DNA from: an uncultured Desulfobacterales bacterium
GTDB lineage: Bacteria; Desulfobacterota; Desulfobacteria; Desulfobacterales; JAUVVS01
DNA: 36,250 nt
Assembly: GCA_964594355.1 (NCBI GenBank)
Contig: CAZQOH010000001.1
Span: forward strand, 1-36,250
Reading direction: 5' to 3'
Shown here: piece after piece, positions 7,812 to 32,143 of the stretch
How the letters are laid out: the number at the start of each line of letters is the position of its first letter
How positions within the stretch are numbered: the first letter of the stretch is position 1
Position numbers and translations under genes: made by a program
The notes under the pieces: generated by a model
Seen by the model: the letters and a program-made list of their open reading frames with translations, nothing else
The model's database searches: none
What the model was told of the DNA's origin: nothing

Positions 7812-7818
7812 AAATGAA

Positions 7819-11382: not shown

Positions 11383-11387
11383 TGTTG

Positions 11388-14774: not shown

Positions 14775-14816
14775 ATTCAATCTTCAATATTCAATCTTCA
14801 ATATTCAATGTTAAAT
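14775..14816. repeat. Heptanucleotide tract (ATTCAAT/CTTCAAT) x6
   Basis: attcaat cttcaat attcaat cttcaat attcaat gttaaat. It overlaps the LivF-like stop codon (14811-14813) and lies in the gap before the LivH-like start. Confidence 0.9.
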
Positions 14817-15892: not shown

Positions 15893-16606
15893 TCAACGGC
15901 CCAGATAGGCGTCAATGACTGATGGGTCATGACGAACCTTATCAGATTCCCCTTCGGCAATAGTCTTTCCGGCCGAAAGGACAGTCAGGTTCTTACACAG
16001 TTTCATGACCGATGGAATGTCGTGGCTGATAAGAAGGAAAGTCTTTGACTGTGTTTTATTCAGCTCAAAAGTGATCTCTATCAACCGATCAATCAAGGCA
16101 GGGTTGACACCGGCAAAAGGTTCATCCATAAGAACTACCTCGGGGTCCGCCATCATGGTCCGCATAAATTCAAGAAGCTTCTTCTGTCCGCCGGAGATTT
16201 CAACACCTAATTGATCCCGCAAATGGGTGAGATCTGCCATCTCTAAAAGCTCCAGCGCCTTTTTCTCTCCTTCCCTTTTTGAAATGTGTCTGGGAATAAT
16301 AGGAACCATCATGTTGTCCATGAGGGTCATTTCATTAAAGACTCGGGGAACCTGAAAGGTTCGGCCAATACCCATATGAGCAATTTTATTTGGCTTGCTG
16401 TTAGTAATTTCACGGCCCTTGAACAAAATCGTCCCCTTCTCAGCAGTGTAAACGCTGTTGATTACATTGAACATGGTAGTTTTGCCTGCCCCGTTAGGCC
16501 CGATGACGCCGTGAATCTTTCCCTCTTCAACACTCAAAGAGACGCCATCCAAAGCTGGAATGCCACCAAAGTGTTTAAAAACATCATGAACTTCCAATAA
16601 TGCCAT
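15893..16606 (-). CDS. ABC transporter ATP-binding protein (LivG-like)
   Basis: 237 aa. Walker A GPNGAGKTT, signature ISGGQKK and Walker B VLMDEPFAG. Confidence 0.88.
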   Translation of the reverse strand: MALLEVHDVFKHFGGIPALDGVSLSVEEGKIHGVIGPNGAGKTTMFNVINSVYTAEKGTILFKGREITNSKPNKIAHMGIGRTFQVPRVFNEMTLMDNMMVPIIPRHISKREGEKKALELLEMADLTHLRDQLGVEISGGQKKLLEFMRTMMADPEVVLMDEPFAGVNPALIDRLIEITFELNKTQSKTFLLISHDIPSVMKLCKNLTVLSAGKTIAEGESDKVRHDPSVIDAYLGR

Positions 16607-16622
16607 TGTGAAACCCTAAAGA

Positions 16623-16653
16623 ATTCACAAGCCCCTTTTGGGGGCTTGTGAAT
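16623..16653 (-). terminator. Strong intercistronic hairpin after the binding-protein gene (possible attenuator or mRNA-stabilising stem)
   Basis: attcacaagcccc (16623-16635) and ggggcttgtgaat (16641-16653) form a 13-bp perfect stem with a 5-nt loop. It lies between the SBP stop (16697) and the LivG-like start (16606). Only a weak T-rich tail (ttcttt) follows on the minus strand. Confidence 0.5.
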
Positions 16654-16696
16654 GGTTTGTTATTTATATTGTCGAACGATAATGAAAGAGTCAAGT

Positions 16697-18034
16697 TTAG
16701 AGCCATGGAGGTGCTTTGAACTTGGCTTCGGCAAGATCAAGAGGCCAGATTATTTTTGGTTTTCCACCGTGCATCTGGGCCATTGGTAAAAAGAACCCTT
16801 TCATAAAATTACCCGTTCGGACGTCATTTCTTGAAAGCTGATGAAGGGTCCCCTCCTGAGAGAAGTCTTTCCAGAAGTCGTTGTACGTAGCAAAATCATA
16901 GAGTTGCCAGACTCCCTTGTGTTTCACCTTCTCTCTAATGTGCTCTGTCAGCTTTTCGAATTTAAGAGACCCCACATCCCTGAGAACCTTTATTGCCATC
17001 ATGGTATGATCGTATGGATGACCGGAAGGTGCAATCCCTGCATCAACGCCGTATTTGTCCTTAAACCGTTTCATCCATTCTTTCTGTTCAGGAGAAATGG
17101 GATAGGGAGAATCCATACAAAGGGCAAAGTCTGAAGCCTCTTTGGTGTTTTGATACCATTCCCCTGTCCATGTGAGCCCGTGAGCAATAAATAGGGCCTT
17201 GAGTCCCATGGCGCGAACCTGCTTGACAAAATTGTACATGGGCACTCCACCTGTCTGTGTGACTGCCACGACAGATACTTTGGCTGCTTTGTACTTTGTG
17301 ATGATAGGTGTGAACTCGGTCTCATCAATAGCATTCACATCAAAGGGCATCACGTCAAAGCCGGCAGTTCTCAGACTGACCTCCAAAGCTTCGCCCCATC
17401 CCCGGCCATAATCGGTGTCTTCAACAATGACGGCAGCCTTTTTGTTTGCCGGCTTCCATAGGCCTTTTTCCATGAAATGCATAAGCGGTGGTCCATAGAG
17501 CCCTGCAAAAACCGGAGGGGATGACCAGCCCTTGAACCATCCCTGGTATTTCTCAGGATGGTCGTTAATTTTAAAGTTGACGTACTGTGACTCGCCCTGA
17601 TGCCCAATGTGAACGATCTTGAGGGGAGATTCTGCATCCATACAGGCCATGGCAACAGATGAATGCCAACCTGTAACCATCATTTTGACCCCTGCGTTGA
17701 CGGCGTGTGTTATGGCTCTGACCGATTTTTCAGGGCTCGACTGGCTGTCCACCCACACTGGTTGGATATCCAAGGTTTTGCCATCGACCTTCACGGGGAT
17801 CTCTCCCGCCGCCCTGGCATCCTCAAGGGCCATCTTAATACCCCTCTTGAACGCATCTCCTGTCCGGCTGGCAGGTCCCGTGAAAGGGCCCATAAAACCG
17901 ATCTTCAGCTTCGTCGCCGCATGGGCATTCTTTGGAAGGCCCGCTGTTAGGACACCTCCGGCAACAGCAGCTATCCCAACGGTTTTTACAAAGTCACGAC
18001 GAGTCATTCCTTCTTTTCTTTCCTCTTCTTTCAT
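16697..18034 (-). CDS. Periplasmic substrate-binding protein of the Liv/amide type (type I PBP fold) with twin-arginine signal peptide
   Basis: 445 aa. The N-terminus MKEEERKEGMTRRDFVKTVGIAAVAGGVLTAGLPKNAHA-AT has a TRRDFVK Tat motif, a hydrophobic core and an AHA cleavage site. A strong GGAAAGGAGG lies upstream, and it is the first gene of the ABC operon. Confidence 0.85.
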   Translation of the reverse strand: MKEEERKEGMTRRDFVKTVGIAAVAGGVLTAGLPKNAHAATKLKIGFMGPFTGPASRTGDAFKRGIKMALEDARAAGEIPVKVDGKTLDIQPVWVDSQSSPEKSVRAITHAVNAGVKMMVTGWHSSVAMACMDAESPLKIVHIGHQGESQYVNFKINDHPEKYQGWFKGWSSPPVFAGLYGPPLMHFMEKGLWKPANKKAAVIVEDTDYGRGWGEALEVSLRTAGFDVMPFDVNAIDETEFTPIITKYKAAKVSVVAVTQTGGVPMYNFVKQVRAMGLKALFIAHGLTWTGEWYQNTKEASDFALCMDSPYPISPEQKEWMKRFKDKYGVDAGIAPSGHPYDHTMMAIKVLRDVGSLKFEKLTEHIREKVKHKGVWQLYDFATYNDFWKDFSQEGTLHQLSRNDVRTGNFMKGFFLPMAQMHGGKPKIIWPLDLAEAKFKAPPWL

Positions 18035-18376: not shown

Positions 18377-19387
18377 CTACAAAACAAACCCATTTGCAAA
18401 AGGGTCTTCGGGATCTATAACAAATTTATGAAATCCCGTCAGAAATGGGCGACAACTGACTTTAGGAACGATTGCGGGAATATCACCCACCTTGGTTTCA
18501 GATAAGATCTCGCCTTTGAAAACAGAGCGTATGGAACTTTCGTGACGAAATTGCTGGCCAACGGCGAGTTTTCCTTTTCTGTTAAGAACAGCCATTCTGG
18601 CACAGGTTCCACTGCCACAGGGAGATCGATCAGCCTGGCCTAAGCCGAATATCACAATGTTTCGCGCATCTGCATGGGGTCCTGAGGGTGGAGCGGTGAT
18701 TATACAGAGGTCAATTGTACGTATATGCTCCTTTGTTTTGTCCTGTACCGGTATCTGTTTGTTAGCAGCATTAAGTACAGCCATTCCCTTCTTTATCAAT
18801 TCATTTGTATATTCAGAGTCAATACTTTCGATGCCAAGTTGATCAGAATTCACAATTACAAAAAAGTTACCTCCGTAGCCTACATCCACAATAATTTTAC
18901 CATGCTCCGGTACTTCTATTTCCTTATCTAAAACCCAGGCATAGGATGTCACATCTACAAAACTGACTTCTGTTACCCTGTCGTTTTCATCGGTTAATAC
19001 CGTTCCCTCAATTATACCTGCCGGCACCTCAAGTCGAACGGTTGTTTTTCCCGGTTTAGATTCAACCCTGCCCGTTTCAACCATCATCGCACATATACCG
19101 AGTGTGCCATGACCACACATATTCAAATAACCTTTACCATCCATATATATAACGGCAGCATCGGCAGAAGGATCAATGGGAGGAAGGAGTATGGCCCCAA
19201 ACATATCTCGGTGACCACGAGGCTCGTGCATAAGTGACATTCGAAGCCAATCCATATGATTTTTAAGATAATCCATGCGCTCAGCCATGGTGTCTCCTTT
19301 GACTTTTCCGAACCCGTCAACAATTATCCGTGTAGGTTCTCCGGCCGTATGCGAATCGATTACAGATATGATATTCTTTAAATTCAT
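18377..19387 (-). CDS. Proline racemase family enzyme (4-hydroxyproline 2-epimerase or proline racemase type, Cys/Cys)
   Basis: 336 aa. The N-terminal VIDSHTAGEPTRII is the family hallmark. Both catalytic positions are Cys (NMCGHGT, Cys91; DRSPCGSGT, Cys257), which indicates an epimerase/racemase rather than the Cys/Thr dehydratase subtype. Confidence 0.85.
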   Translation of the reverse strand: MNLKNIISVIDSHTAGEPTRIIVDGFGKVKGDTMAERMDYLKNHMDWLRMSLMHEPRGHRDMFGAILLPPIDPSADAAVIYMDGKGYLNMCGHGTLGICAMMVETGRVESKPGKTTVRLEVPAGIIEGTVLTDENDRVTEVSFVDVTSYAWVLDKEIEVPEHGKIIVDVGYGGNFFVIVNSDQLGIESIDSEYTNELIKKGMAVLNAANKQIPVQDKTKEHIRTIDLCIITAPPSGPHADARNIVIFGLGQADRSPCGSGTCARMAVLNRKGKLAVGQQFRHESSIRSVFKGEILSETKVGDIPAIVPKVSCRPFLTGFHKFVIDPEDPFANGFVL

Positions 19388-19400: not shown

Positions 19401-20573
19401 TTAAACCAGTCCGCTTTCGCTTAGTGGTTTTTTTTCCAAAATCCGTTCGGGCCGAAAGACCGACAAATCCAGAGTTGATTGTCTCCCTAATATCAGTTCC
19501 GACATGTAGCGACCCACTGCCGGCGCCTGCTGAAGCCCATGACCGGAAAAGCCGTTGGCCAGAAAGAACCCTTTAAGTTCCGGCCACTCACCAAGTATTG
19601 CGTTCCCGTCGAGATTATTCACTGCGTATAACCCTGCCCAGCCTCGAACCAGTTTGAGCGTATCAAAGGCAGGGACGAACTCGGCTAATTCCGGCCAGAG
19701 AGTCTCCATGAATCTCTTATCATCCCAGGTAAAGTCGAATCCAACCGGATCCTCCGCCATTGACTTGCCCAACAGGATCAAGCCGCCTGTTTCAGTTCTG
19801 AAATAAAGTCCAGAGGGTAGAATGGTCAGGGGTAACGGTCCTTCGGGTTTAACTGCTGTTTTGAGCGTGAAAACCTGACGTTTGACAGGATCAACCGGTA
19901 TCTTTACTCCAGCCGTCTGCGCCACGTTGGCTGCCCACGCGCCGGTACAATTAACCACAAATTTGGACTTCAGACTTCCGTCTGAAGCCAGCTTGACCCC
20001 CGATGTCCTTCCATGATCAGCTATAATCTCAACGACCTCGTCTTTAATGTATTTCGCCCCTAATGATCCGGCTTTTTTCTTATATCCCATTAAAACGGCA
20101 TAGGCATCAAAATGACCGTCTTGAGACCCAAAGGAGCCACCTGCCAGACTGCCGGGTTCATAAAGTGGATAATGTTCCTTGATTTTTTCCGGTGACCACC
20201 ACTCTACCTGACAACCCAGGCTTTTCTGTAAGTCCAGAGCTTCTTCGGCCGCCTTACGGGCATCTTCTTCCACTAGAAAAAGATTGCCCTCACGGCGATA
20301 GTAGATTTTCGGTTTGTTATCATCGATTGCCATCTCGTCCTCAAAACGCTCTAAAACGTCAAATGCGTATTGTGAGACCTGAATGTTCTCCTTGAGGCTG
20401 AACTGGATACGCGCATTTACCATGGACAGGGTGGTTGAGGCTCTTTCATAGGTGGGGTCTCGTTCAACAACCGCTACTTTGATATTTGCATCAGCGCTCA
20501 TGAGGTAATAAGCTGTGGAGCTGCCCATGACACCGCCGCCGACAATGATGATATCGTAGATGTTATTGTTCAT
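19401..20573 (-). CDS. FAD-dependent oxidoreductase (DAO / sarcosine-oxidase-beta-like family)
   Basis: 390 aa. It has the N-terminal FAD fold YDIIIVGGGVMGSSTAYYL and a length and layout typical of the DAO family. Its stop lies 13 nt before the racemase-family start. Confidence 0.8.
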   Translation of the reverse strand: MNNNIYDIIIVGGGVMGSSTAYYLMSADANIKVAVVERDPTYERASTTLSMVNARIQFSLKENIQVSQYAFDVLERFEDEMAIDDNKPKIYYRREGNLFLVEEDARKAAEEALDLQKSLGCQVEWWSPEKIKEHYPLYEPGSLAGGSFGSQDGHFDAYAVLMGYKKKAGSLGAKYIKDEVVEIIADHGRTSGVKLASDGSLKSKFVVNCTGAWAANVAQTAGVKIPVDPVKRQVFTLKTAVKPEGPLPLTILPSGLYFRTETGGLILLGKSMAEDPVGFDFTWDDKRFMETLWPELAEFVPAFDTLKLVRGWAGLYAVNNLDGNAILGEWPELKGFFLANGFSGHGLQQAPAVGRYMSELILGRQSTLDLSVFRPERILEKKPLSESGLV

Positions 20574-20789: not shown

Positions 20790-21941
20790 TTATTTAAATT
20801 GTTCCATTTTAGAAAAATCACGATACAAATCAAAATGTTTTAAGATTTCTATATCCTCCTTTGATAGTTCATTTGAAATGATTCTGCAAATTAATTTCCC
20901 TAAACCGGGTCCCAACATGAATCCCTGACCACACATACCTACTGCATTTATGAAATTAGGAGTTTCTTTAAGAGCCCCAACTATTGGGAATCCATCTGGA
21001 GTCCTCTGATATTGCCCGCGCCAGGTTCGGCGAACTTTAATATTGGCCAGTTTTGGGAAAAGTTTTACCATTCGTCCGGCAACTTGTGGTAAAAAAAAGG
21101 AAGTGGAATCACAATCCGTTCCATATATAGACGGTTTGGGAGTTATACAGAAAATCACCTGCCCTTCATTATTTTGATAAAAATAAAAATTCGCTGAATC
21201 TTTAGTTGGCCTCATATCGACAATCATTGGTCCGAAAAATCTTTTAACAGGTTCGGTGATACCGCCTTCATGACTGTCAGGAACCACAGGTAAATCCAGG
21301 TTTACCATTTTTCCGATTTCTTTTGCATTATTTCCTGAAGCATTTACAACAAAATTACAATGATAATTCCCTTTGTTTGTAACTACTTTTATGGGATTAT
21401 TTTTTTTAACTTTTATATCAACAACTTTTTCTTTGAATTTATATTTTCCGCCAAACTCCAGACTTTTGAAATAGAAGGCACTGTTTGCTAAAAGTGGCGA
21501 CGCACTTCCATCATCTGGTGAATAGGTGGAGCCTTGTAATCCATTTTCGTTTATACCCGGAACCAATTCTTTATATTCTTCCGCAGAAATCCAATCTATA
21601 TTCAATCCAAATAATTTTTGGATCTTTAACAAAGCTTTAAGTTTTTTTTCATCTTTTTTTGTATAAGCCGGAAAACTGTATCCGTTTTTTATCCATCCAA
21701 TATGGTCGCCATACTTTTCTTTCCAGGTGGAGAAAATCTCTATACTTAGCTGACAGACTTTGATTTTCCCTTTATTGGAATGAGTGGCACGAATACCTCC
21801 GATAGCTCTTTTATTCTGTCCTTGTCCTGGTGAAGACAGCGCATCAATAACCAAGACTTTAATCCTCTTCTCTGCCAAAGTCAAAGCAATTGGAACACCA
21901 ATAGAACCCGCGCCGATAACGATTACTTCGTATTTATTCAT
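20790..21941 (-). CDS. FAD-dependent oxidoreductase, beta-subunit-like (sarcosine oxidase beta / opine oxidase B / D-hydroxyproline dehydrogenase beta type)
   Basis: 383 aa. It has the FAD fold YEVIVIGAGSIGVPIALTL and the GGIRATHS block. It is partnered with the large Fe-S flavoprotein gene upstream. Confidence 0.8.
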   Translation of the reverse strand: MNKYEVIVIGAGSIGVPIALTLAEKRIKVLVIDALSSPGQGQNKRAIGGIRATHSNKGKIKVCQLSIEIFSTWKEKYGDHIGWIKNGYSFPAYTKKDEKKLKALLKIQKLFGLNIDWISAEEYKELVPGINENGLQGSTYSPDDGSASPLLANSAFYFKSLEFGGKYKFKEKVVDIKVKKNNPIKVVTNKGNYHCNFVVNASGNNAKEIGKMVNLDLPVVPDSHEGGITEPVKRFFGPMIVDMRPTKDSANFYFYQNNEGQVIFCITPKPSIYGTDCDSTSFFLPQVAGRMVKLFPKLANIKVRRTWRGQYQRTPDGFPIVGALKETPNFINAVGMCGQGFMLGPGLGKLICRIISNELSKEDIEILKHFDLYRDFSKMEQFK

Positions 21942-21960
21942 TCTTATTCCAGGGTTGCAT

Positions 21961-22072
21961 CATCCGTCATCTGTCTTCTGCCATCTGTCATCCGTCATCC
22001 GTCATCCGTCATCTGTCATCCGTCATCCGTCCTCTGTCTTCTGTCTTCCGTCATCCGTCATCTGTCATCCGT
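21961..22072. repeat. Tandem heptanucleotide array, 16 head-to-tail units of CATCYGT and variants (ACRGATG on the coding strand)
   Basis: Read directly: catccgt catctgt cttctgc catctgt catccgt x3 catctgt catccgt x2 cctctgt cttctgt cttccgt catccgt catctgt catccgt. It fills most of the 139-bp gap between the alpha-like stop (22081) and the beta-like start (21941). Confidence 0.95.
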
Positions 22073-22080
22073 CACCAATC

Positions 22081-24162
22081 CTAACCTCCATCTGAAAATT
22101 TTCCCAAAGGAACCTCAACAAAAAGGGGACGTCGTAAATTTAATTCAACCTCTTCCAAAGGAATATCTTCTTCACGGAATATTTGCTTCACTAAGTTTTC
22201 ACATGTTTTGTAACCACAAGGACCCATCCCGGCGCGAGTGATTGCCTTAATCTGGTTCATATTTATAATCCCTTTGCGAACAAGAGAACGTATTTCATCG
22301 GCATTAACTCTTTCACAGAGGCAAACCATTTCTTCTTCATCAATATTATCTGGGAAACGAAGATCTTCAAGCGGCTTTGATATGTCTTCATCTTGAATTC
22401 GAAAAGAAACAACTTTTTGGGCAATCTCTTTTGGAACTTTAATTCTTACTAATTGGGTTTTATTTGTAAATTTAGTCTTGGTAACACGAACAACCTCAAA
22501 ATTGCCAAGAGGATTGGTATCATTATCAACACATTCGACATTGTCACCTTTCTCAATTTTGATGTTGGAAACTTCATAAGGCAAAGTGACCAAAGGATTC
22601 TGTGCATCTTTTCGGAAATCAACAAGAGTAATTGCCAGCCCGGGACAAATCGCCACACATTTTGCACAACCATTACACCCGTTTCCCTCAAAAACAGGAA
22701 GACCTCGTATGGGATCACCTTTAATCTTTATGGAATTTGTTTTGCAAACAGTGATACACGGGTTACAGGGAATTTCCTGTCTACAGTGAATAATGGGCGC
22801 CACCCCTTCACTTAATTTTGAAATTCTCGTTTTATAAACTTTGCCGGCTGGAGATTTCAATGTTTCCGCTTTTTCATACCAACTTTTCGGAATTTCGTTG
22901 ACATCCGCTCTAAGCTCTTTGGCAATTTTTAGTCCGACAATTTTCCCATTAAACATTGCTGAAGAAGCTTCTGCAATTTCCATGGCGTCCCCGGCGGAAT
23001 AGACATTTAATCCTGCTGTCTTTGCTTCTTCTGCAAATTCACTGACAGATTCCAGACCGACTGCAATGAGAATTGTGTCACATTCAAAAGTTTTTTCAGT
23101 ACCATCGATTATTTTAAAATTGCTATCGATCTGTGCAATCGTAATTGAAGTAACAGATTTCTCTCCATTTGCCGAACTTATGGTGTGGGATGTATAAATC
23201 GGCACCCCAAGTCTTTTTAATTTATCTTCATGAACCTTGTATCCACCGCATTTCGGCAATGCTTCCACAAGTCCCACAACATTTATACCGGCCTGCAAAG
23301 CGTGATAACCGGCAATAAGACCTACATTCCCGCCGCCAATTATAAACAGCTTTTCGGTGGGACGAATCATATCTCTATTTACCAGGGTTTGAAATGCGCC
23401 TGCTCCATAAATTCCTGCCAGTCTATTTCCTTTAAAACGAAGGAATTTTTCCCTTGCACCGGTGGCGTTTAAAACAATTTTAGGTAAAACTATTTTATAA
23501 ACACCGTCTTTAAGGATACCCACTGCTTTATCTTTAAAAACATACAAAGCAGTGCTGTTTGTCCAGATTTCTATGTTTTCATTTTCCAAAACCTTCTTGG
23601 TAAGCATTTTGCCGATATCTATTCCACGCATTCCGGCAAAAGAATCTTCCACCGATCCGAAGAACTTATGAGTTTGCAAAACCAATTTGCCGCCCAACTC
23701 GCTTTTATCATCAACCAGCAGGGCTTTTATGCTGTTTTCTCCCAATTGAATTGCCGCGGAAAGACCGGCCGGACCTCCGCCAATAATTAAAACATCCGTT
23801 TTTAGATGCTCAATATCGCTGATTTTCGGTTTTTTATTAACTTCCGGAAGCTTTGGAAGACCTTCTACACTTTCTATAATCATATTTTCTGCAACTTCGG
23901 TCATACAGGCCTTTACAGGAATACCGTTTGCAATTACGGCACACTTTGCACACTGACCGTTGGCACAAAAGATACCTTGAGCGCTTCCATCTTTATGATG
24001 GTGCCCGAAAATTTTAACCCCGTTTGCAAAAAGTGCGGAAGAAATGACCTCCCCCTTTTTAGCTTTTATAGGTGTTTTATTCCAATAACATGTAATATCC
24101 TCCAATTCCTTAATGGGCAATATTGGGTGTTTTACTAACCTATAGTTACTCACCTTTTTCAC
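22081..24162 (-). CDS. Multi-domain Fe-S flavoprotein: 2Fe-2S-like N-domain + FAD/NAD(P) pyridine-nucleotide-disulfide-type oxidoreductase + ferredoxin-like 4Fe-4S region + BFD-like 2Fe-2S C-domain (alpha-subunit-like)
   Basis: 693 aa. It has an N-terminal Cys cluster (FCANGQCAKCAV...KAC) and two GxGxxG folds (LIIGGGPAGLSAA, FIIGGGNVGLIAG). It also has CRQEIPCNPCITVC plus CNGCAKCVAICP, and a C-terminal CLCERV...GPCGYKTC. The start is uncertain (GTG 24162, GTG 24153 or TTG 24120); the two GTG candidates overlap the MttB-family stop at 24146 and the TTG lies 25 nt downstream of it. Confidence 0.8.
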   Translation of the reverse strand: MKKVSNYRLVKHPILPIKELEDITCYWNKTPIKAKKGEVISSALFANGVKIFGHHHKDGSAQGIFCANGQCAKCAVIANGIPVKACMTEVAENMIIESVEGLPKLPEVNKKPKISDIEHLKTDVLIIGGGPAGLSAAIQLGENSIKALLVDDKSELGGKLVLQTHKFFGSVEDSFAGMRGIDIGKMLTKKVLENENIEIWTNSTALYVFKDKAVGILKDGVYKIVLPKIVLNATGAREKFLRFKGNRLAGIYGAGAFQTLVNRDMIRPTEKLFIIGGGNVGLIAGYHALQAGINVVGLVEALPKCGGYKVHEDKLKRLGVPIYTSHTISSANGEKSVTSITIAQIDSNFKIIDGTEKTFECDTILIAVGLESVSEFAEEAKTAGLNVYSAGDAMEIAEASSAMFNGKIVGLKIAKELRADVNEIPKSWYEKAETLKSPAGKVYKTRISKLSEGVAPIIHCRQEIPCNPCITVCKTNSIKIKGDPIRGLPVFEGNGCNGCAKCVAICPGLAITLVDFRKDAQNPLVTLPYEVSNIKIEKGDNVECVDNDTNPLGNFEVVRVTKTKFTNKTQLVRIKVPKEIAQKVVSFRIQDEDISKPLEDLRFPDNIDEEEMVCLCERVNADEIRSLVRKGIINMNQIKAITRAGMGPCGYKTCENLVKQIFREEDIPLEEVELNLRRPLFVEVPLGKFSDGG

Positions 24163-25618
24163 TTTCGGCTAATTCCTTTTCACCCTTTTTTCTTAGTCGC
24201 TTAAGTTCCCCAAGGACTGAATCTGATAATGGAGGAACCTCATGTGTTTCCAGTATCGTCCGGATTTTTTCCTGAATTCGATCAACCATTGTCTTTTTGC
24301 CTTCATTAGCCCAGAGATCAAATGTTTGCCTGGCCATTAAGGTTGGAATCCAATGCTCGTTTCTAAAATGCTGATATGTGTGTTCCTCCTGGAGAAAGTT
24401 ACCACCTGGACCGACTTTTTCTATGATTTCACGAGCTAATGTTTCTGAATTTACTTTTACTCCCTGGAGAAATCGTTTGACCATACCTATCACTTCATCG
24501 CCCATAACCAGCATTTCCGCGGAGCTGATCATTCCACTATCGAGATATCCCACATCATGGATAATGTTGACTCCGCCCAGAGCCTGAGTAAGGCAGGAAA
24601 AAGCACTCTCTATACCGGCCTGCGGATCCAAAGTCTTTGCATCGGTACAACCTGCCGTTCCCCAAGTGGGAAGGCCATAAAGCCGCGCGACATCACCATA
24701 GGCGGCTGTTAAAAGACTCAGCTCCGGAGCGCCAAAAGTCATATTTCCAGTCGCCATGTCCATAACAGTTGGGACACCTCCCAGAACATAAGGCGTTCCA
24801 GGTCTTTTAAGCTGGGACAGTATCAATCCCATGATGCTTTCCGTATTCGTAAGGACAAGGGTTCCGGCCATGGTAACAGGACTTGTCGAGCCTGCCTGAT
24901 TTGCCGGACCTCCGATCACCGGCATACCCAGTCCCGCCGTATAAAGGACTTTTTCTGCGACATCCTGGGGATAGACGAGAGGCGTAATAGGTTCCGGGTA
25001 AGCTACAATAAAGGGACGTTCTCTTAGTCGATCCATGCCTCCAGCCACTGCCGCCGCCATATCATATACAATCTCATGGGCCCTGGAGGAAAAGGTGAGG
25101 AAAATGATAGGCTTCCGGGTATTGGTCACAGCCGCCACAAATTCATGTAGTTCCGCTGCCTGAGCCGGTGTTACGTCCTGGCAAGACCCCATGGGCATTA
25201 TCCAGTCAATGTTAGGAAGGGCATCGGCGATCAGGGCGCCTCTGGCGATATCTTCGACCCTAGTCGGGTGGATCTCATAAGTCAGGGCATCCCGCGTATT
25301 TGGGCTGGCCGGATTTGTTCCAAAATAGGTTTTCCGTCCCTCCACTTCCAATGCACGATTACCTTCCCGATCGTACAGAGTAAACCCTTTTGGGGTCAGG
25401 CGAATACATTCCTCCACAATATACTGGGGCGTTTTTACAATATCCCCGTCTACATGGGCACCGGCTTTTTTCAGGAGATTAATGGCCTCTTCACATATAA
25501 CTTTATAGCCAACCTTCTCAAGAACTTCCAAGGAAGCCCGGTGGATTTCATAGACCTGATCATGAGAAAGAATGGAAAACTGTGGTGATCTTTGCGATAT
25601 AAATGATGACTGTATCAT
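24146..25618 (-). CDS. MttB-superfamily (trimethylamine methyltransferase family) protein, non-pyrrolysine type
   Basis: 490-aa uninterrupted ORF with no in-frame TAG. Its length and N-terminal pattern (ILSHDQVYEIHRASLEVLEKVGYKV) are typical of MttB-family quaternary-amine:corrinoid methyltransferases. AGGAGGG precedes the ATG. Confidence 0.85.
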   Translation of the reverse strand: MIQSSFISQRSPQFSILSHDQVYEIHRASLEVLEKVGYKVICEEAINLLKKAGAHVDGDIVKTPQYIVEECIRLTPKGFTLYDREGNRALEVEGRKTYFGTNPASPNTRDALTYEIHPTRVEDIARGALIADALPNIDWIMPMGSCQDVTPAQAAELHEFVAAVTNTRKPIIFLTFSSRAHEIVYDMAAAVAGGMDRLRERPFIVAYPEPITPLVYPQDVAEKVLYTAGLGMPVIGGPANQAGSTSPVTMAGTLVLTNTESIMGLILSQLKRPGTPYVLGGVPTVMDMATGNMTFGAPELSLLTAAYGDVARLYGLPTWGTAGCTDAKTLDPQAGIESAFSCLTQALGGVNIIHDVGYLDSGMISSAEMLVMGDEVIGMVKRFLQGVKVNSETLAREIIEKVGPGGNFLQEEHTYQHFRNEHWIPTLMARQTFDLWANEGKKTMVDRIQEKIRTILETHEVPPLSDSVLGELKRLRKKGEKELAESEKGE

Positions 25619-25634
25619 GATGCCCTCCTAAGGC

Positions 25635-25793
25635 AGTTAAGTAGTTGAGTGGTTAAGTTGTTATTATTATGTCAATATTTTGTATTTGTATGAAAATTGG
25701 ATGCCCATTGTTTGGATGATTATAATCTTTCGAAATTTCAATGATTGTTTCCAACTCAACCATTTCTCACTCAACTACTTGACGATATCTGAA
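25635..25793. repeat. Inverted-repeat element between the MttB-family start and the PIN stop
   Basis: aagtagttgagtg (25640-25652) is the exact reverse complement of cactcaactactt (25768-25780). The arms extend imperfectly. Parts of this element recur at 8860-8892. Confidence 0.75.
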
Positions 25794-25798: not shown

Positions 25799-26278
25799 TT
25801 AATCGATGGTAATAATATTCAGTTCAGGGAAATAGCTTGAGTAATATCCTCTATCACCCGTTACAATCTTTCGTCTTTTCGTTTGAAGAGCATATGCTCC
25901 AATAATAAAATCAGTAAGAATATATTGTCTAATTTTAATCTCAGAGTTACAATATGTACAGGTTAGTTTCTTAAGTTTTTTTCCGCATCTTTGGCATATT
26001 ACTACACGGCGTTTGTTATATATCTTCCAACGTTTGGCAGCTATTAGATATGCTTCCGGTTTTATATCGCCAATTACAATACCTGTGTCGCGTAAAAAAG
26101 CATTTAATTCTTTTACATCCTCGAACATCAACGAAAGTTCACCATATACAATCTTTGGAATAACCAGAATGTTTTTTGGGGATAGTTCTCCCAATAAATT
26201 GGCATACTTTTTACCGAAATCAGGGATGGCATTATATATATAGACAAGGGGATTTGTGTCAATAATGATACTATTCAT
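25799..26278 (-). CDS. PIN-domain (VapC-like) toxin with an internal CxxC-x8-CxxC zinc-ribbon-like insert
   Basis: Acidic PIN residues lie in IIIDTNPLVY, YGELS and LTDFIIGAYA, with the insert ICQRCGKKLKKLTCTYCN. The ATG at 26278 overlaps the antitoxin stop by 8 nt, so I prefer it over the track start at 26302. Confidence 0.75.
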   Translation of the reverse strand: MNSIIIDTNPLVYIYNAIPDFGKKYANLLGELSPKNILVIPKIVYGELSLMFEDVKELNAFLRDTGIVIGDIKPEAYLIAAKRWKIYNKRRVVICQRCGKKLKKLTCTYCNSEIKIRQYILTDFIIGAYALQTKRRKIVTGDRGYYSSYFPELNIITID

Positions 26279-26501
26279 CGTCTCTACCGCGAAATTCATC
26301 AATCATTTGATCAATGCCCTCTTTACTGCGACTTTTTCCACGTCCAAGCCACTTCATGAATCTATTCTCACGTCTGCTTCTCACAATTAAAGCTTTATTC
26401 CCCTCTGTAATAACATCAACATCCATTCCCGGTAACAAGCCGAATTTATTCCTTATATCTTGAGGTATAGTAATCTGACCTTTGCTAGTTATTTTTGGCA
26501 T
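26271..26501 (-). CDS. AbrB/SpoVT/MazE-family antitoxin
   Basis: 76 aa. The N-terminal KGQITIPQDIRNKFGL is a swapped-hairpin DNA-binding motif, and the C-terminal tail is charged. It sits upstream of and overlaps the PIN gene. Confidence 0.8.
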   Translation of the reverse strand: MPKITSKGQITIPQDIRNKFGLLPGMDVDVITEGNKALIVRSRRENRFMKWLGRGKSRSKEGIDQMIDEFRGRDDE

Positions 26502-27127: not shown

Positions 27128-27877
27128 ATGAAAATCAATTCAATCGAACGCTGTCTGAAAGTTATTGATATCTTAAGTAATCATTCCAAGGGCTTGAAGT
27201 TGACGGAAATCAGCCGTCTACTCGACTTGCACCCGAGTTCGGTGCATCACATGGTTTCGACACTGCTGCCCCATGATTATCTATCCCAGGATCCGGACAC
27301 CAAAAAGTACTCATTGGGATTTCGATTTCTGGACATCAGCCGTAAAATTTTAGATAATCTGGACATCCGTCAAATTGCCCATCGCCATCTGGAAGTCTTA
27401 CGCCAGGAGGTCCAGGAAGCCGTTCATCTGGCGATGCTGCGGGGTGATAAGGTCGTTTATATCGACAAGCTGGACACCCTCAGCGGCCTGTCGCTTGCCA
27501 CTTATGTGGGATTTGCCGCCGATCCGCATGCGGCTGCCGGCGGTAAGGTTTTGCTGGCCGGCTTAAACGATGACGCGGTCAAAGGCATTTATAAAAACAA
27601 GTCTTTAAAAGCTTATGGTAAAAATACCATTACGCGTCTACCGGCACTGATGGCAGAGCTGGCCAGAATTCGCAAACAGGGATATGCCGTCGATAATGAA
27701 GAATACTACGAAGGTGTTCGCTGTGTTGCCGCTCCGGTCCGCTCTGGCGGTGAAGTAATTGCATCCATCAGCGTAACAGGTTCCATATTCACGATGACCC
27801 AGGGGCGCATTGAAAAGGAACTGGCTGCGACGGTTGTAAGGGCAGCAGATTCGGTTTCCGCCGAAATAAAGTGGTAG
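27128..27877 (+). CDS. IclR-family transcriptional regulator
   Basis: 249 aa. It has an N-terminal winged HTH (LKVIDILSNHSKGLKLTEISRLLDLHPSSVHHMVSTL) and a C-terminal IclR effector domain (GYAVDNEEYYEGVRCVAAPV). Confidence 0.9.
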   Translation: MKINSIERCLKVIDILSNHSKGLKLTEISRLLDLHPSSVHHMVSTLLPHDYLSQDPDTKKYSLGFRFLDISRKILDNLDIRQIAHRHLEVLRQEVQEAVHLAMLRGDKVVYIDKLDTLSGLSLATYVGFAADPHAAAGGKVLLAGLNDDAVKGIYKNKSLKAYGKNTITRLPALMAELARIRKQGYAVDNEEYYEGVRCVAAPVRSGGEVIASISVTGSIFTMTQGRIEKELAATVVRAADSVSAEIKW

Positions 27878-27906
27878 ATCATTTAAGGGATGGGGAGAGG
27901 AAGGCA

Positions 27907-28458
27907 ATGAAAGAGATTAGAATACACGGAAGAGGCGGTCAGGGCTCTCTTGTTCTGGCGCAATTTATGGCCATTGCTGCCCTGGAGGACGGCAAATACA
28001 GCCAGGCATTTCCATTTTTAGGCGGCGGAGGGGAACGTCGCGGCAAACCGATCGTTGCGTTTTGCCGGCTCAGTGACCAGCCCATCCGCACCCGTAGCCA
28101 CGTTCATGCACCCGATTATGTCATCGTGCAGGATGCCACCATTCTCAGTGAGGTTGATGTCGCCGGAGGTCTGAAGCAGACCGGATCGATCTTAATCAAT
28201 ACGGATAAATCGGTGGCTGATTTAGGGCTTGAAAATTCGAATGCCGTCACCATATCCGCAGATGAACTGGCCCGCAGGATTCTGGGCCGACCCATTATCA
28301 ACACCGCACTTCTGGGCACGTTTGCCGGCTTTAGCCGGGAGCTGTCGCTGGAAGCCGCGTTGAACGCCGTGCGGAGTAAATTCCCCGGTGAACTGGGGGA
28401 AAAAAATGCACAGGTTGTCGCAGAAAGTTACCACGCATTTTTAAAGGAGACTTCATGA
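27907..28458 (+). CDS. 2-oxoacid:ferredoxin oxidoreductase, gamma subunit
   Basis: [19 protein letters not shown] is the typical gamma-subunit N-terminus. The ATG at 27907 is preceded by GGGGAGAGGAAGG. The track start at 27871 overlaps the iclR end. Confidence 0.88.
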
Positions 28459-28712
28459 AACTGACAAAAGGCGCAGTTGTTGAGGGCGGAACCTCCTTGA
28501 ATTACAAGACCGGCGGGTGGCGGGACCAGCGACCGGAGATTGATAAGGAATTGTGTAATCAGTGCGGTAAATGCCGGGAAGTTTGCCCGGATGACGCCGT
28601 CCGCCACAATGACGACCGCTTTGAAATCGACTATGATTTTTGCAAAGGATGTGGCATCTGCGCCTATGAGTGCAAGGCTGTGGCCATCCAAATATTACCG
28701 GAGGAAAAATAA
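28455..28712 (+). CDS. 2-oxoacid:ferredoxin oxidoreductase, delta subunit (2x[4Fe-4S] ferredoxin)
   Basis: 85 aa. It has two cluster motifs ([23 protein letters not shown]) and an ATGA overlap with the gamma stop. Confidence 0.85.
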
Positions 28713-28714
28713 CC

Positions 28715-29905
28715 ATGGACAACATCAGAGTGGTAGAGGGGTCTGAAGCCGTCGCACTGGCGGTAAAGGCCTGTCGACCCCATGTTATTTCGGCTTACCC
28801 CATCAGCCCTCAAACGCATATTGTCGAGGGTCTGGCCAGAATGGTAGCCGATGGCGATATCGATGCCGAGTACGTCAGAGTCGAATCCGAGTTTTCAGCA
28901 GCCAGTGTGCTGGCCGGCGCAGCGGCCGCAGGCAGCCGCAGCTATACGGCCTCATCTTCCCAGGGGCTGTTACTGATGACCGAAGTACTATACGCCAGTA
29001 CGGGCATGCGCCTGCCGTTTGTAATAACCGGTGTGAACCGATCGGTATCGGCGCCGATCAACATCCAGGTAGACCACCAGGACAGCATGTCCCTGCGGGA
29101 TGCCGGCCTGATACAATTTTACGTGGAAAGTGTCCAGGAAGCCTATGACATGCATCTAGCGGCCTTCAAAATCGCGGAGGATCCAGACATCATGCTACCG
29201 GTCATGTTGTGCATGGACGGCTGGGTACTGACCCATTCTTACGAGCGGGTGCAGTTCGTCAACCAGCAGGCTGTCGATGATTTTCTCCCGCCATTTGCTC
29301 CCGAGCATTATCTGGACCCGGCCATGCCGAAAACCTGGGGCTCCTATGCCGAATCGGATGCCATGATGGAATTCAAATATGCGATTCACAAAGCCATGAC
29401 CGAAGGAAAATCCCGAATCCAGGAAATCCTGGATGAGGTATCGGCGCTGACCGGCCGTGATAACAGCGGGCTGATCGAAGCCTACCGTATCGACGGTGCC
29501 GAAGTTATTTTGGTGGCGATAGGATCTGTCACCGGTTCGGTTAAGGATGCTGTTGACGAGCTGTGGGACGCCGGCAAAAACGTCGGCCTGCTCAAGATCA
29601 GATGCTATCGGCCATTCCCGCACGAGGAGATTTGGCAAGCCGTAAAGGGTGCCAAAGTTATCGCCGTGATGGACGCCAGCTTTTCCATGGGCAGCGAAGG
29701 CCCGATCGGTCTTGATCTGAAGGCTAAATTATTCGGCCGGCCGCAAGCGCCCATGGTGGTTGATTTCGTTGCCGGACTCGGCGGACGTGAAATCAATACC
29801 CACACGGTTCACCAACTGGTTGCGCGCACCGAGGAGATTCACCGCTCAGGACAGGTGTTATCCGAACCGGAGTGGGTGGACCTCGACTCGACCATTGTAT
29901 CTTAG
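28715..29905 (+). CDS. 2-oxoacid:ferredoxin oxidoreductase, alpha subunit
   Basis: Starts MDNIRVVEGSEAVALAV at the ATG at 28715, preceded by GGAGGAAAAA and located just after the delta stop. The layout is typical of POR/VOR alpha subunits. Confidence 0.88.
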   Translation: MDNIRVVEGSEAVALAVKACRPHVISAYPISPQTHIVEGLARMVADGDIDAEYVRVESEFSAASVLAGAAAAGSRSYTASSSQGLLLMTEVLYASTGMRLPFVITGVNRSVSAPINIQVDHQDSMSLRDAGLIQFYVESVQEAYDMHLAAFKIAEDPDIMLPVMLCMDGWVLTHSYERVQFVNQQAVDDFLPPFAPEHYLDPAMPKTWGSYAESDAMMEFKYAIHKAMTEGKSRIQEILDEVSALTGRDNSGLIEAYRIDGAEVILVAIGSVTGSVKDAVDELWDAGKNVGLLKIRCYRPFPHEEIWQAVKGAKVIAVMDASFSMGSEGPIGLDLKAKLFGRPQAPMVVDFVAGLGGREINTHTVHQLVARTEEIHRSGQVLSEPEWVDLDSTIVS

Positions 29906-29920
29906 GCGAAGGAGAAACAA

Positions 29921-30832
29921 ATGACCGTCAAAAAGAAAACCCAAAAAGAATCGCTGTTTGTCTCCGGCCATCGAGCATGTCACGGCTGCGGTATGGCGCT
30001 GGGGGTTCGGCATATTCTGGAGGCAACCGGAAATGATGTGATCGTGGTTTCACCCACCGGATGTCTGGAAACCTTTACCTCGCCCTATGGCTTCTCACCC
30101 TGGCGGGTGCCCTGGATACACCACGTGTTTGAAAATGCTCCGGCAGTTGCCACCGGTATCGTCGCCGCCCTGCGAGCTCAGGGGCGAGACCACACCCGAG
30201 TGGTCGCTATCGGCGGGGATGGCGGAACGTTTGATATCGGATTTGGTGCCCTTTCGGGGATGCTGGAGCGCGGCGATGATGTCCTTTATATATGTGTCGA
30301 CAATGGCGCCTATATGAATACCGGCGGCCAGCGCAGCGGAGCAACCCCTGTCTGGGCGGCGACCACAACAGCCCCGGCCGGCCGGCAATCCATGGGCAAA
30401 GTCGAGATGAAAAAGGATCTTCCCGAGATCATTGCGGCCCATGGTATTCCTTATGTGGCCACCGCATCGATTGCCTATCTGGGCAATCTAAAGAATAAAA
30501 TAAAAAAAGCCATGACCTACCACGGGCCGCGTTATATTCAGATCGACACCCCCTGCCCCTCGGTGTGGAGCTTTCCGTCACATCTGACGCTTGAAATCGG
30601 CCGGCTGGGTGTCAACAGCGGGCTGGTGCCGCTGTTTGAAAAAGAAAACGGAGAAATCACCGCGGTTCGCAAAATTAAGCGCAAAATTCCGGTCGCTGAT
30701 TATCTGACAAAGCAAAAACGATATCGGCACCTGTTTGACTCCGAGCAGGGACAGATCAAGATCGAAAAAATTCAGGCACTGGCCGATACCAACATTGAAA
30801 AATACGGACTGTTATCCGTAGGAAATCATTGA
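29921..30832 (+). CDS. 2-oxoacid:ferredoxin oxidoreductase, beta subunit (TPP-binding)
   Basis: 303 aa. It has the CHGCG cluster ligands near the N-terminus and the TPP motif GGDGGTFDIGF...DNGAYMNTGGQ. GAAGGAG lies upstream. Confidence 0.9.
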   Translation: MTVKKKTQKESLFVSGHRACHGCGMALGVRHILEATGNDVIVVSPTGCLETFTSPYGFSPWRVPWIHHVFENAPAVATGIVAALRAQGRDHTRVVAIGGDGGTFDIGFGALSGMLERGDDVLYICVDNGAYMNTGGQRSGATPVWAATTTAPAGRQSMGKVEMKKDLPEIIAAHGIPYVATASIAYLGNLKNKIKKAMTYHGPRYIQIDTPCPSVWSFPSHLTLEIGRLGVNSGLVPLFEKENGEITAVRKIKRKIPVADYLTKQKRYRHLFDSEQGQIKIEKIQALADTNIEKYGLLSVGNH

Positions 30833-30876
30833 GCAGGAGGCTTCACATGAAACTACAAAAAGGAGGTTTGTGAACC

Positions 30877-31959
30877 ATGGAATCCATCTTCGAATACATG
30901 GAAAAATACGACTTCGAGAATCTATTTTTCTGCCAGGACAAGGCGCTTGATTTCAAGGCCATTATCGCCATCCACGACACAACCCTGGGTCCCGCCACCG
31001 GCGGCTGCCGCATGTGGAAGGATTATCCCAGCGAGCTGGATGCTATCGAGGATGCCCTGCGGCTGGCACGCGGAATGACTTACAAGTACGCTGCCGCCGG
31101 GGTGAATCTGGGCGGGGGAAAGGCGGTCATCATCGGCGACCCCAAACGCAAGGACCGTGAGCCAATCTTCCGGGTTCTAGGGAAATTCATCAATCGTCTG
31201 GGCGGCAAATACATCACCGGCGAAGATGTGGGCACCACCTTGCAAGATATGGAATACATCCGCATGGAAACCGAGCACGTCGTCACTCTACCGACCTATT
31301 TAGGCGGGGCCGGTTACATCGCCCCCATGACAGCGTATGGTACCATCCGCGCCATGCAGGCCTGCTGCAACCGCGTCTATGGCTCGGACAGCCTGGAGGG
31401 GAAAACCGTAACGGTGCAGGGGCTGGGGGCGGTCGGTCACAACGTTGTCGAGCAACTCCACGAGCTCGGCGCCAAGTTGATCGTCACGGACATCGATCCT
31501 GCCAAAGTGGAGACCATAACGGCGCGTTTCGAGGCCAGCGCCGTGCAGGTCGAGGCCATCTATGATGTCGACTGCGACATTTTTTGTCCCTGTGCCCTGG
31601 GAAAAGTCATCAATGACGATACCCTCAGCCGTCTGAAGTGCAAAATCATCTGCGGCTCCGCCAACAATCAGCTGGTCGAAGAGCGCCACGGCGATCGGAT
31701 AGAGAAAATGGGACTGGTCTATGCCCCGGACTACATTGCCAACGCCGGCGGTACCATCTATGATACGGATCGCCTGGGGGTTGGTGGGGTCAGCGATGAG
31801 CGCGGCAAGACCAAAGTGGCCCGCGTCTATGACAACATGCAGCGTGTGTTTGAAATCGCCGACCGCGACCGGCTGCCGACTTATCAAGCAGCCGATCGCA
31901 TTGCGGAGGAGAGAATCAGTCAAATTGCCGAGGTGAAAAAGTATGTGGATGATTTGTGA
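30877..31959 (+). CDS. Leucine-dehydrogenase-like amino acid dehydrogenase (Glu/Leu/Phe/Val dehydrogenase family)
   Basis: 360 aa. Blocks IIAIHDTTLGPATGGCRMW, AIEDALRLARGMTYKYAAAGVNLGGGKAVIIGDP and KYITGEDVGTT closely resemble Bacillus-type LeuDH as I remember it. AAAGGAGG lies upstream. Confidence 0.88.
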   Translation: MESIFEYMEKYDFENLFFCQDKALDFKAIIAIHDTTLGPATGGCRMWKDYPSELDAIEDALRLARGMTYKYAAAGVNLGGGKAVIIGDPKRKDREPIFRVLGKFINRLGGKYITGEDVGTTLQDMEYIRMETEHVVTLPTYLGGAGYIAPMTAYGTIRAMQACCNRVYGSDSLEGKTVTVQGLGAVGHNVVEQLHELGAKLIVTDIDPAKVETITARFEASAVQVEAIYDVDCDIFCPCALGKVINDDTLSRLKCKIICGSANNQLVEERHGDRIEKMGLVYAPDYIANAGGTIYDTDRLGVGGVSDERGKTKVARVYDNMQRVFEIADRDRLPTYQAADRIAEERISQIAEVKKYVDDL

Positions 31960-32143
31960 TCCTGGAACAAAAAAAGGTGTCTTTTCTTACTTGAATACTT
32001 CAAAAGGAGGAGATGAGCAAATGAATGAAAGTACATCAAAGCGTATAATGATATCTAATTGAGTTGACGCACATAATCATCACCTAACCGATAACCCAAT
32101 GGAAAGTTGCTATAGGCGAAATTCCCAAACGATTGGAGGAGAT

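Follow-up and report, generated by a model that had tools for sequence, protein, structure and literature searches.

Several described systems resemble parts of the locus considered here. The glycine betaine:tetrahydrofolate system of Desulfitobacterium hafniense, MtgB/MtgC/MtgA, uses a full-length TIM-barrel enzyme of the MttB superfamily that contains no pyrrolysine (Protein Data Bank (PDB) ID: 2QNE and 9YCE). Eubacterium limosum possesses further family members without pyrrolysine, MtpB, MtcB, and MtyB, whose partners (MtqC, MtqA, and RamQ) lie in other clusters; MtpB acts on proline betaine, and E. limosum is not known to metabolize N-methylproline further. The dye-linked L-proline dehydrogenase PDH1 of Pyrococcus horikoshii is encoded by PH1363 (alpha) and PH1364 (beta; PDB ID: 1Y56), and Clostridioides difficile possesses a route that runs through the trans-4-hydroxy-L-proline dehydratase HypD (PDB ID: 6VXC) and pyrroline-5-carboxylate (P5C) reductase. 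Aerobic breakdown of proline betaine proceeds from a Rieske demethylase through a flavin-dependent N-methylproline demethylase to proline dehydrogenase (PMC3950512), and in marine bacteria genes for the later steps of glycine betaine demethylation have been placed near mtgBCD (PMC12478193). Here we analyze a stretch of 36,250 nt from an uncultured Desulfobacterales bacterium (positions 1 to 36,250 of contig CAZQOH010000001.1, assembly GCA_964594355.1), referred to throughout as the window, in which a minus-strand MttB-family gene overlaps the start of a gene for a large iron-sulfur flavoprotein (alpha), followed by a gene for a smaller flavoprotein subunit (beta) and by further genes of proline and hydroxyproline metabolism.

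The MttB-alpha pair is genuine: an operon join kept under selection and specific to one lineage of relatives of sulfate reducers from marine sediment, it arose from horizontal transfer and is a variant of known arrangements. Taking all the evidence together, we think it somewhat probable that the window MttB is an ordinary methyltransferase that depends on a corrinoid partner encoded elsewhere and feeds a proline/hydroxyproline operon. A literature search found no paper that combines MttB with hydroxyproline and nothing on anaerobic N-methylproline demethylation.

Results

The MttB-alpha junction

An earlier note on this DNA, written by a model from the letters alone, had described an MttB-family gene without TAG codons whose stop fell inside or close to three possible starts of the alpha gene. 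The MttB open reading frame (ORF) is indeed uninterrupted and of full length, with its TAA stop at 24146-24148, and the three candidate starts (GTG 24162, GTG 24153, and TTG 24120) all lie in the alpha frame. Surveyed relatives are denoted here by the numbers of their loci or contigs, L012 being a contig of a Desulfobacterales metagenome-assembled genome. The alpha GTG lies 7 nt past the MttB stop in L009, behind GGAG, and 1 nt past it in L012, behind AAGGAG; both align with GTG 24153 of the window, and for most alpha homologs the alignment starts at residue 4 of the long ORF. Since GTG 24153 is homologous to the starts in L009 and L012, alpha is 690 residues long and overlaps MttB by 8 nt, much as the note had envisaged, and the two genes are probably translationally coupled. 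The junction sequence itself has turned over among the three lineages. When the three loci are aligned, they are conserved from the MttB ribosome-binding site on and unrelated upstream of it; because homology ends at this site, the conserved block runs from MttB to the transporter genes and has a variable left flank. That flank is a plasticity zone, and in L009 the part that corresponds to window 25799-26501 (2159-5386) contains integrase fragments together with BrnT/BrnA, DUF4258, and VapBC pairs.

Extent of the MttB-alpha pairing

Twelve contigs, drawn from several JGI and ENA samples, carry the exact window MttB protein, each time with this arrangement of genes. MttB followed directly by alpha also occurs in the lineage of L009, L010, L011, and L093 (MttB 91% identical) and in L012 (MttB 94% and alpha 88% identical). 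Synonymous divergence (dS) among the three lineages is 0.43 to 0.65 at a dN/dS of 0.07 to 0.13 for MttB and alpha alike, and MttB itself, at 0.07 to 0.11, is under purifying selection. The strong compositional heterogeneity of this single metagenomic contig might be attributed to chimeric assembly, which would make artifacts of both the junction and the GC step described below. We give this negligible weight: the identical arrangement in 12 contigs from several samples, with natural variation in heptamer copy number and a split leucine dehydrogenase gene, and the same per-gene GC pattern in two diverged lineages rule it out.

The database survey that the earlier note had called for was positive in these two sister lineages and negative beyond them. 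Among 80 genomes with an alpha homolog, a same-strand MttB gene ahead of alpha was seen only in L012, and the pairing is absent from 77 of the 80. Across 62 metagenome loci with MttB relatives, alpha was seen only beside relatives of at least 91% identity, and the pairing was not found at relatives of 80% identity or less. An enrichment of MttB genes beside alpha-beta pairs was considered and rejected, three MttB genes per 963 kb of flank being a plausible background (positional p ∼0.1). Two Desulfobacterales loci carry a lone MttB paralog directly beside alpha-beta on the opposite strand (L021 8049-9518, minus strand, 47% identical; L036 4168-5616, minus strand, 31% identical), surrounded by housekeeping genes and lacking a corrinoid gene; these juxtapositions are suggestive, but by statistics they do not differ from chance.

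The MttB protein and its clade

The window MttB matches PF06253 over residues 5-475 of its 490 (E 1.3e-99), and its best PDB matches, to which it aligns end to end, are MtgB (2qne and 9yce, E 1e-72) and MttB (7xcl). Its score of 437 against the trimethylamine methyltransferase equivalog model TIGR02369 lies below the cut-off of 525, and Cys324 aligns with the pyrrolysine (X of 7xcl) of Methanosarcina barkeri MttB. Judged by this score and by the absence of a TAG codon for pyrrolysine, the protein does not appear to be a trimethylamine methyltransferase MttB proper. In MtgB, glycine betaine is contacted by Y97, R312, H348, and F356, and the carboxylate-binding R312 is reported to be conserved in MtcB, MtpB, MthB, and MtyB (PMC13080624). 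The window equivalents are P103, W319, H354, and G362, a set that in alignment does not reproduce the substrate residues of MtgB.

Trp-319 and His-354 are invariant in all of the best 120 homologs (58-91% identity), which define a large, uncharacterized clade (Trp-319 clade); at the position of this Trp, the characterized betaine methyltransferases all have the carboxylate-binding Arg. Because a corrinoid protein and a pterin-binding or URO-D methyltransferase accompany some members in canonical gene clusters (L007, L118, L120, L124, and L132), gene context favors treating the clade as true corrinoid-dependent methyltransferases. Near MttB genes of this clade, a gene of the opine dehydrogenase family is found repeatedly (window 33487-34596, L009 897-2000, and L114 7140-8294), the order in L114 being opine-dehydrogenase-family gene, an MttB gene with 67% protein identity, and a DAO flavoprotein gene.

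The corrinoid partner

Pfam scans of all ORFs in the 36-kb window gave no B12-binding match and revealed no gene for a corrinoid protein or pterin methyltransferase. No match of a tblastn search of the window with a canonical corrinoid protein from the locus of a relative fell below E 0.1, and its six frames contained no DxHxxG...SxL...GG motif. The earlier remark that no corrinoid protein is encoded within 10 kb thus extends to the whole window. The approximately 7 kb past one window end likewise hold no partner genes but only those for Aat, a methyltransferase of the PCMT type, and proteins with no Pfam match; on the other side the contig has the same end point in all assemblies. Of 12 close MttB relatives with 70-90% identity and 4 kb or more of flanking sequence, one had a corrinoid gene nearby. 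E. limosum encodes MtqC, MtqA, and RamQ, which its methyltransferases share, at sites away from mtpB, mtcB, and mtyB (PMC8604678). Given these dispersed partners, the premise of the earlier note, that a dedicated corrinoid protein is usually encoded nearby, was too strong; a missing corrinoid neighbor is the rule in the Trp-319 clade and not a sign of unusual chemistry.

The note had left two options, a distant corrinoid partner or recruitment into a new functional pairing with an oxidoreductase. The first is the better supported, by the clade members in canonical clusters, by the scarcity of nearby corrinoid genes among close relatives, and by the E. limosum precedent. The second holds at the level of the operon, in one narrow lineage, and there is no sign of a complex. 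A complex of MttB with the iron-sulfur flavoprotein, in which methyl transfer would be independent of a corrinoid protein or alpha would perform reductive activation, would account for the overlapping genes and the lack of a local corrinoid gene, and for nothing more. We consider it very improbable, given that no MttB-alpha fusion occurs among 240 listed homologs of both proteins, that clade members are found in canonical three-component clusters, and that so few alpha-bearing genomes have the pairing. The gene pair does not point to corrinoid-independent chemistry.

A B12-binding protein of 594 to 615 residues is encoded beside MttB in L009 and L012. It was rejected as the missing partner: it has an adenosylcobalamin-mutase-like fold, it is absent from the window, and three distant genomes pair it with a ProC-like gene and have no MttB there. 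The loci are L009 7928-9775 (minus strand, with the ProC-like gene at 6968-7774, minus strand), L012 5779-7563 (ProC-like gene at 4573-5379), L154, L155, and L156. The protein is 65-75% identical across phyla and consists of a C-terminal B12-binding domain and 480 N-terminal residues without a Pfam match; its AlphaFold model (pLDDT 87) matches methylmalonyl-CoA mutase, glutamate mutase, and ornithine aminomutase. A P5C-reductase-like gene follows it in five of five genomes examined, and from the model and this context the two look like an uncharacterized B12-dependent isomerase-plus-reductase module.

Composition and horizontal origin

The earlier note had judged by eye that MttB is more GC-rich than alpha and beta, and computation agrees (0.481 against 0.396 and 0.362); GC at third codon positions (GC3) differs between MttB and alpha with z = 4.1. 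The composition break that the note placed at the junction is elsewhere. In 60-codon windows, the GC content of MttB is 0.50-0.56 for codons 60-350 and 0.41-0.42 for codons 360-490, so that the last ∼130 codons are at the level of alpha and the step falls within MttB, near 24540 and some 400 nt from the junction. Both ends of the gene are host-like in GC and GC3 (25440-25618, approximately the first 60 codons, and 24146-24540, approximately the last 130) and its center is GC-rich, which may reflect recombination with resident sequence or uneven amelioration. Nor is such a step peculiar to this junction: the gene for a second DAO-family flavoprotein (DAO2), the binding-protein and ABC genes of the importer, and 6 kb at 27128-33349 likewise exceed the core in GC (Table 1), and the whole window is a compositional mosaic. 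By codon-usage log-likelihood, alpha, beta, the racemase, and HypD group with the core genes, DAO2 and the transporter genes tend toward the foreign class, and MttB lies between. The per-gene GC pattern is repeated in L009 and L012; the mosaic is therefore older than their split.

In GC and GC3, MttB is intermediate between the host and its own relatives. Outside the lineage, the contigs of the 12 nearest relatives examined (61-78% identical) range in GC from 49 to 59%; for 11 of them contig GC is 52-59% and gene GC3 0.60-0.77, the exception being L114 (49%, GC3 0.56). Because its nearest relatives sit on contigs of 52-59% GC, the window MttB was probably acquired horizontally from a higher-GC Desulfobacterota donor and then partially ameliorated. 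Homologous exchange has continued inside the cluster, because nucleotide identity between the window and L009 shifts along the block (∼0.89 over MttB, 0.93-0.99 over alpha, and 0.97-0.99 in the 3' half of alpha) and that between the window and L012 stays flat (0.85-0.89). The GC content of the relatives' contigs, the sharp edge at the ribosome-binding site, and the shifting divergence from L009 lend support to the note's suggestion that the module was assembled by recombination.

The alpha-beta pair

Alpha contains the Pfam domains Fer2_4, Pyr_redox_2, Fer4_21, and Fer2_BFD and matches 2gag_A and 1y56_A (PH1363, E 2.3e-17) in the PDB. Beta matches PF01266 (E 4.5e-53), and its best PDB match is 1y56_B, the beta subunit PH1364 of the P. 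horikoshii L-proline dehydrogenase (E 1.1e-51). With a PH1364-like beta directly after a PH1363-like alpha, the pair is predicted to be an L-proline dehydrogenase of the PDH1 type. The match of alpha to the 996-position soxA model is limited to residues 138-423 of the model, corresponding to the N-terminal part of sarcosine oxidase alpha, and no GCV_T folate-binding match was found in alpha with Pfam, iron-sulfur domains occupying that position instead; by its domain content it does not seem to belong to a heterotetrameric sarcosine oxidase (SoxABDG).

The 80 alpha-bearing genomes span Desulfobacterales, Cloacimonadota, Anaerolineae, Elusimicrobiota, Thermoplasmata, and Asgard archaea, and beta follows alpha in all 73 for which sequence was available. 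Alpha orthologs in Desulfobacterales, Cloacimonadota, Anaerolineae, and Asgard archaea are 55-75% identical. As a pair, alpha-beta is 66-75% identical to the nearest other surveyed bacterial pairs (Desulfobacterales and Cloacimonadota, L013-L045); with more distant pairs from bacteria and archaea the identity is 53-64%, and none of these compared pairs is adjoined by an MttB gene on the same strand. The orthologous pair of Asgard archaea adjoins ornithine/arginine genes, namely those for ornithine carbamoyltransferase, a class-III aminotransferase, and a carbamate-kinase-type protein, neighbors that fit a role in proline/P5C metabolism.

Alpha and beta are separated by 139 nt in the window and by 139, 146, or 90 nt in different samples, a spacer filled by a heptamer tandem array; in most other genomes it measures approximately 5 nt. 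The array is conserved at the same place in L009 (13555-13623) and in L012 (12078-12156), where it runs into the end of the alpha ORF. Further, smaller heptanucleotide arrays occupy window intergenic spacers at 37-67, 7780-7812, 14776-14817, and 20729-20759.

A proline/hydroxyproline cluster

DAO2 matches PF01266 (E 2.9e-63), and its PDB matches begin with 1y56_B (135 bits), followed by glycine, sarcosine, and dimethylglycine oxidases; it is a more distant member of the dehydrogenase fold of beta. Its stop lies 13 nt before the start of the racemase gene. The racemase-family protein matches PF05544 (E 3e-114), has proline racemase as its best NCBIfam model (408 bits), and matches the proline racemase 7pb3 (340 bits), which places it, as far as these scores indicate, closest to true proline racemases. 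The glycyl-radical enzyme has PFL-like and Gly_radical domains, scores 1045 bits against 6vxc compared with 511 for the next glycyl-radical enzyme, and has an adjacent activase with a Radical_SAM domain; it is accordingly annotated as a predicted HypD. Taken together, these matches identify the locus as a putative proline/hydroxyproline utilization cluster.

The earlier note had offered, as an example, that the demethylated product of MttB might be passed straight to an N-methyl amino acid dehydrogenase. In such a scheme alpha-beta, or DAO2 with alpha, would oxidize N-methylproline or N-methyl-hydroxyproline taken directly from MttB. Beta and DAO2 do have the fold of sarcosine, dimethylglycine, and proline dehydrogenases, no enzyme genes of the block other than those for DAO2 and MttB look foreign in composition, and the aerobic pathway does use a flavin-dependent N-methylproline demethylase (PMC3950512). 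We nevertheless find this proposal quite unlikely, as orthologous pairs (53-75% identical) exist with no MttB gene next to them on the same strand, which speaks for a general function that has been conserved, the Asgard pair adjoins ornithine/arginine genes, and a folate-binding domain is lacking. Alpha-beta is more plausibly an ortholog of a widespread proline-dehydrogenase-type pair than a dedicated N-methyl amino acid enzyme.

Organization of the window

The features of the locus are listed in Table 1. A minus-strand run from 26501 to 9022 comprises, in order, MazE/PIN, MttB, alpha, beta, DAO2, the racemase, the ABC importer, the activase, and HypD. Beyond HypD lie the core genes asd, folD, secA, clpS, and clpA; the other flank holds a cupin gene and genes for an IclR regulator, a 2-oxoacid:ferredoxin oxidoreductase, a leucine/valine dehydrogenase, a DUF362 protein, and an opine-dehydrogenase-family protein.

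Table 1. Features of the MttB-alpha locus and base composition of selected genes (window coordinates)
Feature	Position	Strand	Basis	GC	GC3
MazE/PIN toxin-antitoxin pair directly upstream of MttB	25799..26501	-	Pfam PIN, MazE_antitoxin match, translation checked		
MttB ribosome-binding site AGGAGGG, 5 nt before ATG; left edge of conserved synteny	25619..25640	-			
MttB-superfamily methyltransferase gene, non-pyrrolysine, 490 aa, Trp-319 clade	24146..25618	-	PF06253	0.481	0.440
8-nt overlap of MttB stop TAA (24148-24146) and alpha start GTG 24153	24146..24153	-	read from sequence		
Alpha subunit, 690 aa: N-terminal 2Fe-2S, FAD/NAD(P) Rossmann, 4Fe-4S, BFD-type 2Fe-2S	22081..24153	-	Pfam, PDB	0.396	0.323
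Heptamer tandem array, GGATGAC (gene strand) x16.4, in alpha-beta spacer	21960..22074		TRF		
Beta subunit, 383 aa, DAO-fold FAD dehydrogenase	20790..21941	-	PF01266	0.362	0.294
DAO2, second DAO-family flavoprotein, 390 aa; candidate D-proline or N-methylproline dehydrogenase	19401..20573	-	PF01266	0.491	0.512
Proline racemase family enzyme, Cys/Cys type	18377..19387	-	PF05544		
Liv-type ABC importer: binding protein, two ATPases, two permeases	12829..18034	-	Peripla_BP_6, ABC_tran, BPD_transp_2		
TAT-signal binding protein of the importer	16697..18034	-		0.494	0.520
HypD glycyl-radical trans-4-hydroxy-L-proline dehydratase (9022-11382) and activase (11388-12293)	9022..12293	-			
Block with GC-rich genes	27128..33349			0.49-0.57	0.53-0.71
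Core genes				0.41	0.35

A promoter scan returned 29 sites against 23.7 expected, with a TG-extended -10 element approximately 48 nt upstream of MttB, and a terminator scan found no minus-strand terminator between the genes. No cobalamin or other riboswitch was found in an Rfam scan of the window.

The GC-rich island at 27128-33349 encodes the IclR regulator, the 2-oxoacid:ferredoxin oxidoreductase (four subunits), the leucine/valine dehydrogenase, and the DUF362 protein, and is probably a horizontally acquired module for branched-chain amino acid oxidation; the corresponding zone of L009 contains no such block. At 15600-15800, where 371 nt separate the two ABC ATPase genes, there is an element resembling a miniature inverted-repeat transposable element, with 36-nt inverted repeats that are 81% complementary and 120 nt apart. 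Near the far end of the window, 35162-36064 encodes a 300-residue protein with a Fer4_16 double-cluster domain, a domain that also occurs in the epoxyqueuosine reductase QueG and in reductive dehalogenases. Every assembly of the contig stops approximately 190 nt past this gene, which suggests a repeat or strain-variable region there.

Discussion

In the scenario that we favor, an ancestor of this Desulfobacterales lineage would have acquired the MttB gene from a higher-GC relative and inserted it directly ahead of a resident operon for proline/hydroxyproline catabolism. MttB, as the substrate:corrinoid (MT1) component, would be co-transcribed and probably translationally coupled with alpha, and the corrinoid protein, the corrinoid:tetrahydrofolate methyltransferase, and the reductive activase would be encoded elsewhere, probably shared with other MttB paralogs. 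The enzyme would demethylate a quaternary proline-related osmolyte of the stachydrine or betonicine type, methylating the remote corrinoid protein, from which the methyl group would pass to tetrahydrofolate. The demethylated product would then enter the flavoproteins, racemase, and HypD, and end at P5C. The genes downstream of MttB support such a metabolic link, in that all those for enzymes are of proline or hydroxyproline type.

A bolder version, which we put forward as speculative and on present evidence unlikely, is that the Trp-319 MttB, DAO2, and alpha-beta make up a complete O2-independent route from proline-type betaines (stachydrine, betonicine) to P5C in sulfate-reducing Desulfobacterales. 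The cobalamin-type methyltransferase would perform the first N-demethylation and one of the flavoproteins the second, with proline or hydroxyproline as the intermediate. If true, this would be the first substrate assignment for a very large MttB clade without the carboxylate-binding arginine.

Several observations weigh against the scenario that we favor. Proline-related betaines are candidate substrates only: the carboxylate-binding R312 of MtgB is replaced by tryptophan and neither aromatic cage residue is kept, which makes the pocket atypical by alignment. The closest MttB relatives adjoin peptide-type ABC transporters and amidases, not proline genes; the importer is of the Liv type and not a betaine (BCCT or OpuA) transporter; and none of the flavoproteins of the locus has a folate-binding domain that could take the second methyl group as methylene-tetrahydrofolate. 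The pairing moreover stems from a single evolutionary event, and comparative support for the metabolic link is thin.

These facts bear on a neutral account, in which MttB is a working enzyme that acts on an unrelated methylated amine, landed by horizontal transfer in a recombination hot spot ahead of the proline operon, and is adjacent to alpha by descent and not through a metabolic link. Such hitch-hiking would explain why the pairing is confined to three related lineages, why the zone upstream is plastic and holds toxin-antitoxin pairs and remnants of integrases, and why close MttB relatives have unrelated neighbors, and it is in keeping with the background density of MttB genes near alpha-beta and with a Trp-319 pocket unlike those of known carboxylate-betaine enzymes. 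It does not readily explain how the junction remained tight (8-nt overlap, 7 nt, and 1 nt) through a dS of ∼0.6 although the junction and upstream flank were remodeled, nor the lack of separate promoter space between MttB and alpha, nor the single substrate theme shared by the other genes of the block. We rate the neutral account as possible but rather unlikely, and retain the tentative assignment of MttB as a corrinoid-dependent enzyme that feeds the proline/hydroxyproline operon.

Marine Desulfobacterales carry many MttB-family paralogs without an assigned substrate, and the main value of the gene pair is as a substrate lead for this uncharacterized clade. An MttB gene in a proline/hydroxyproline operon amounts to a testable substrate hypothesis, directed at proline-type osmolytes from algae, plants, and invertebrates, and the locus is a candidate anaerobic counterpart of the O2-dependent proline betaine pathway.

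How the locus relates to the systems introduced above can now be stated. The window MttB is approximately 31% identical to MtgB in a MAFFT alignment and keeps MtgB H348 as H354, whereas R312, Y97, and F356 are replaced by Trp, Pro, and Gly, so that the glycine betaine pocket is not kept; moreover, unlike the Mtg system, the window has no adjacent mtgC or mtgA. MtpB, MtcB, and MtyB of E. limosum have remotely encoded partners, as the window MttB probably does, but they keep the equivalent of R312 (PMC13080624) and none has been reported in a proline dehydrogenase operon. Compared with PDH1, with which it shares the alpha-then-beta gene order, the window pair is bacterial, its activity is a prediction, and its alpha subunit is a 690-residue fusion that includes 4Fe-4S motifs besides 2Fe-2S domains at the N terminus and of the BFD type. 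The HypD of the window is an ortholog of the C. difficile enzyme and likewise has an adjacent activase, and the sister lineages carry a ProC-like gene nearby; in contrast to C. difficile, it forms part of a larger locus that also encodes MttB, a dehydrogenase of the PDH type, a racemase, and an importer. The aerobic route of Paracoccus denitrificans for proline betaine and hydroxyproline betaine (the Rieske demethylase HpbB/C, the flavin-dependent N-methylproline demethylase HpbA, and PutA) has the same order of steps as proposed here, but its first step is O2-dependent, where a cobalamin-type methyltransferase would take over in the window; the last enzyme would be of the PDH type instead of PutA, and there is no HpbD epimerase. 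The marine MtgBCD loci, which occur in aerobes, carry mtgC and mtgD, and act on glycine betaine, differ from the window in these respects, yet like it they place an MttB-family gene beside enzymes of later demethylation (PMC12478193).

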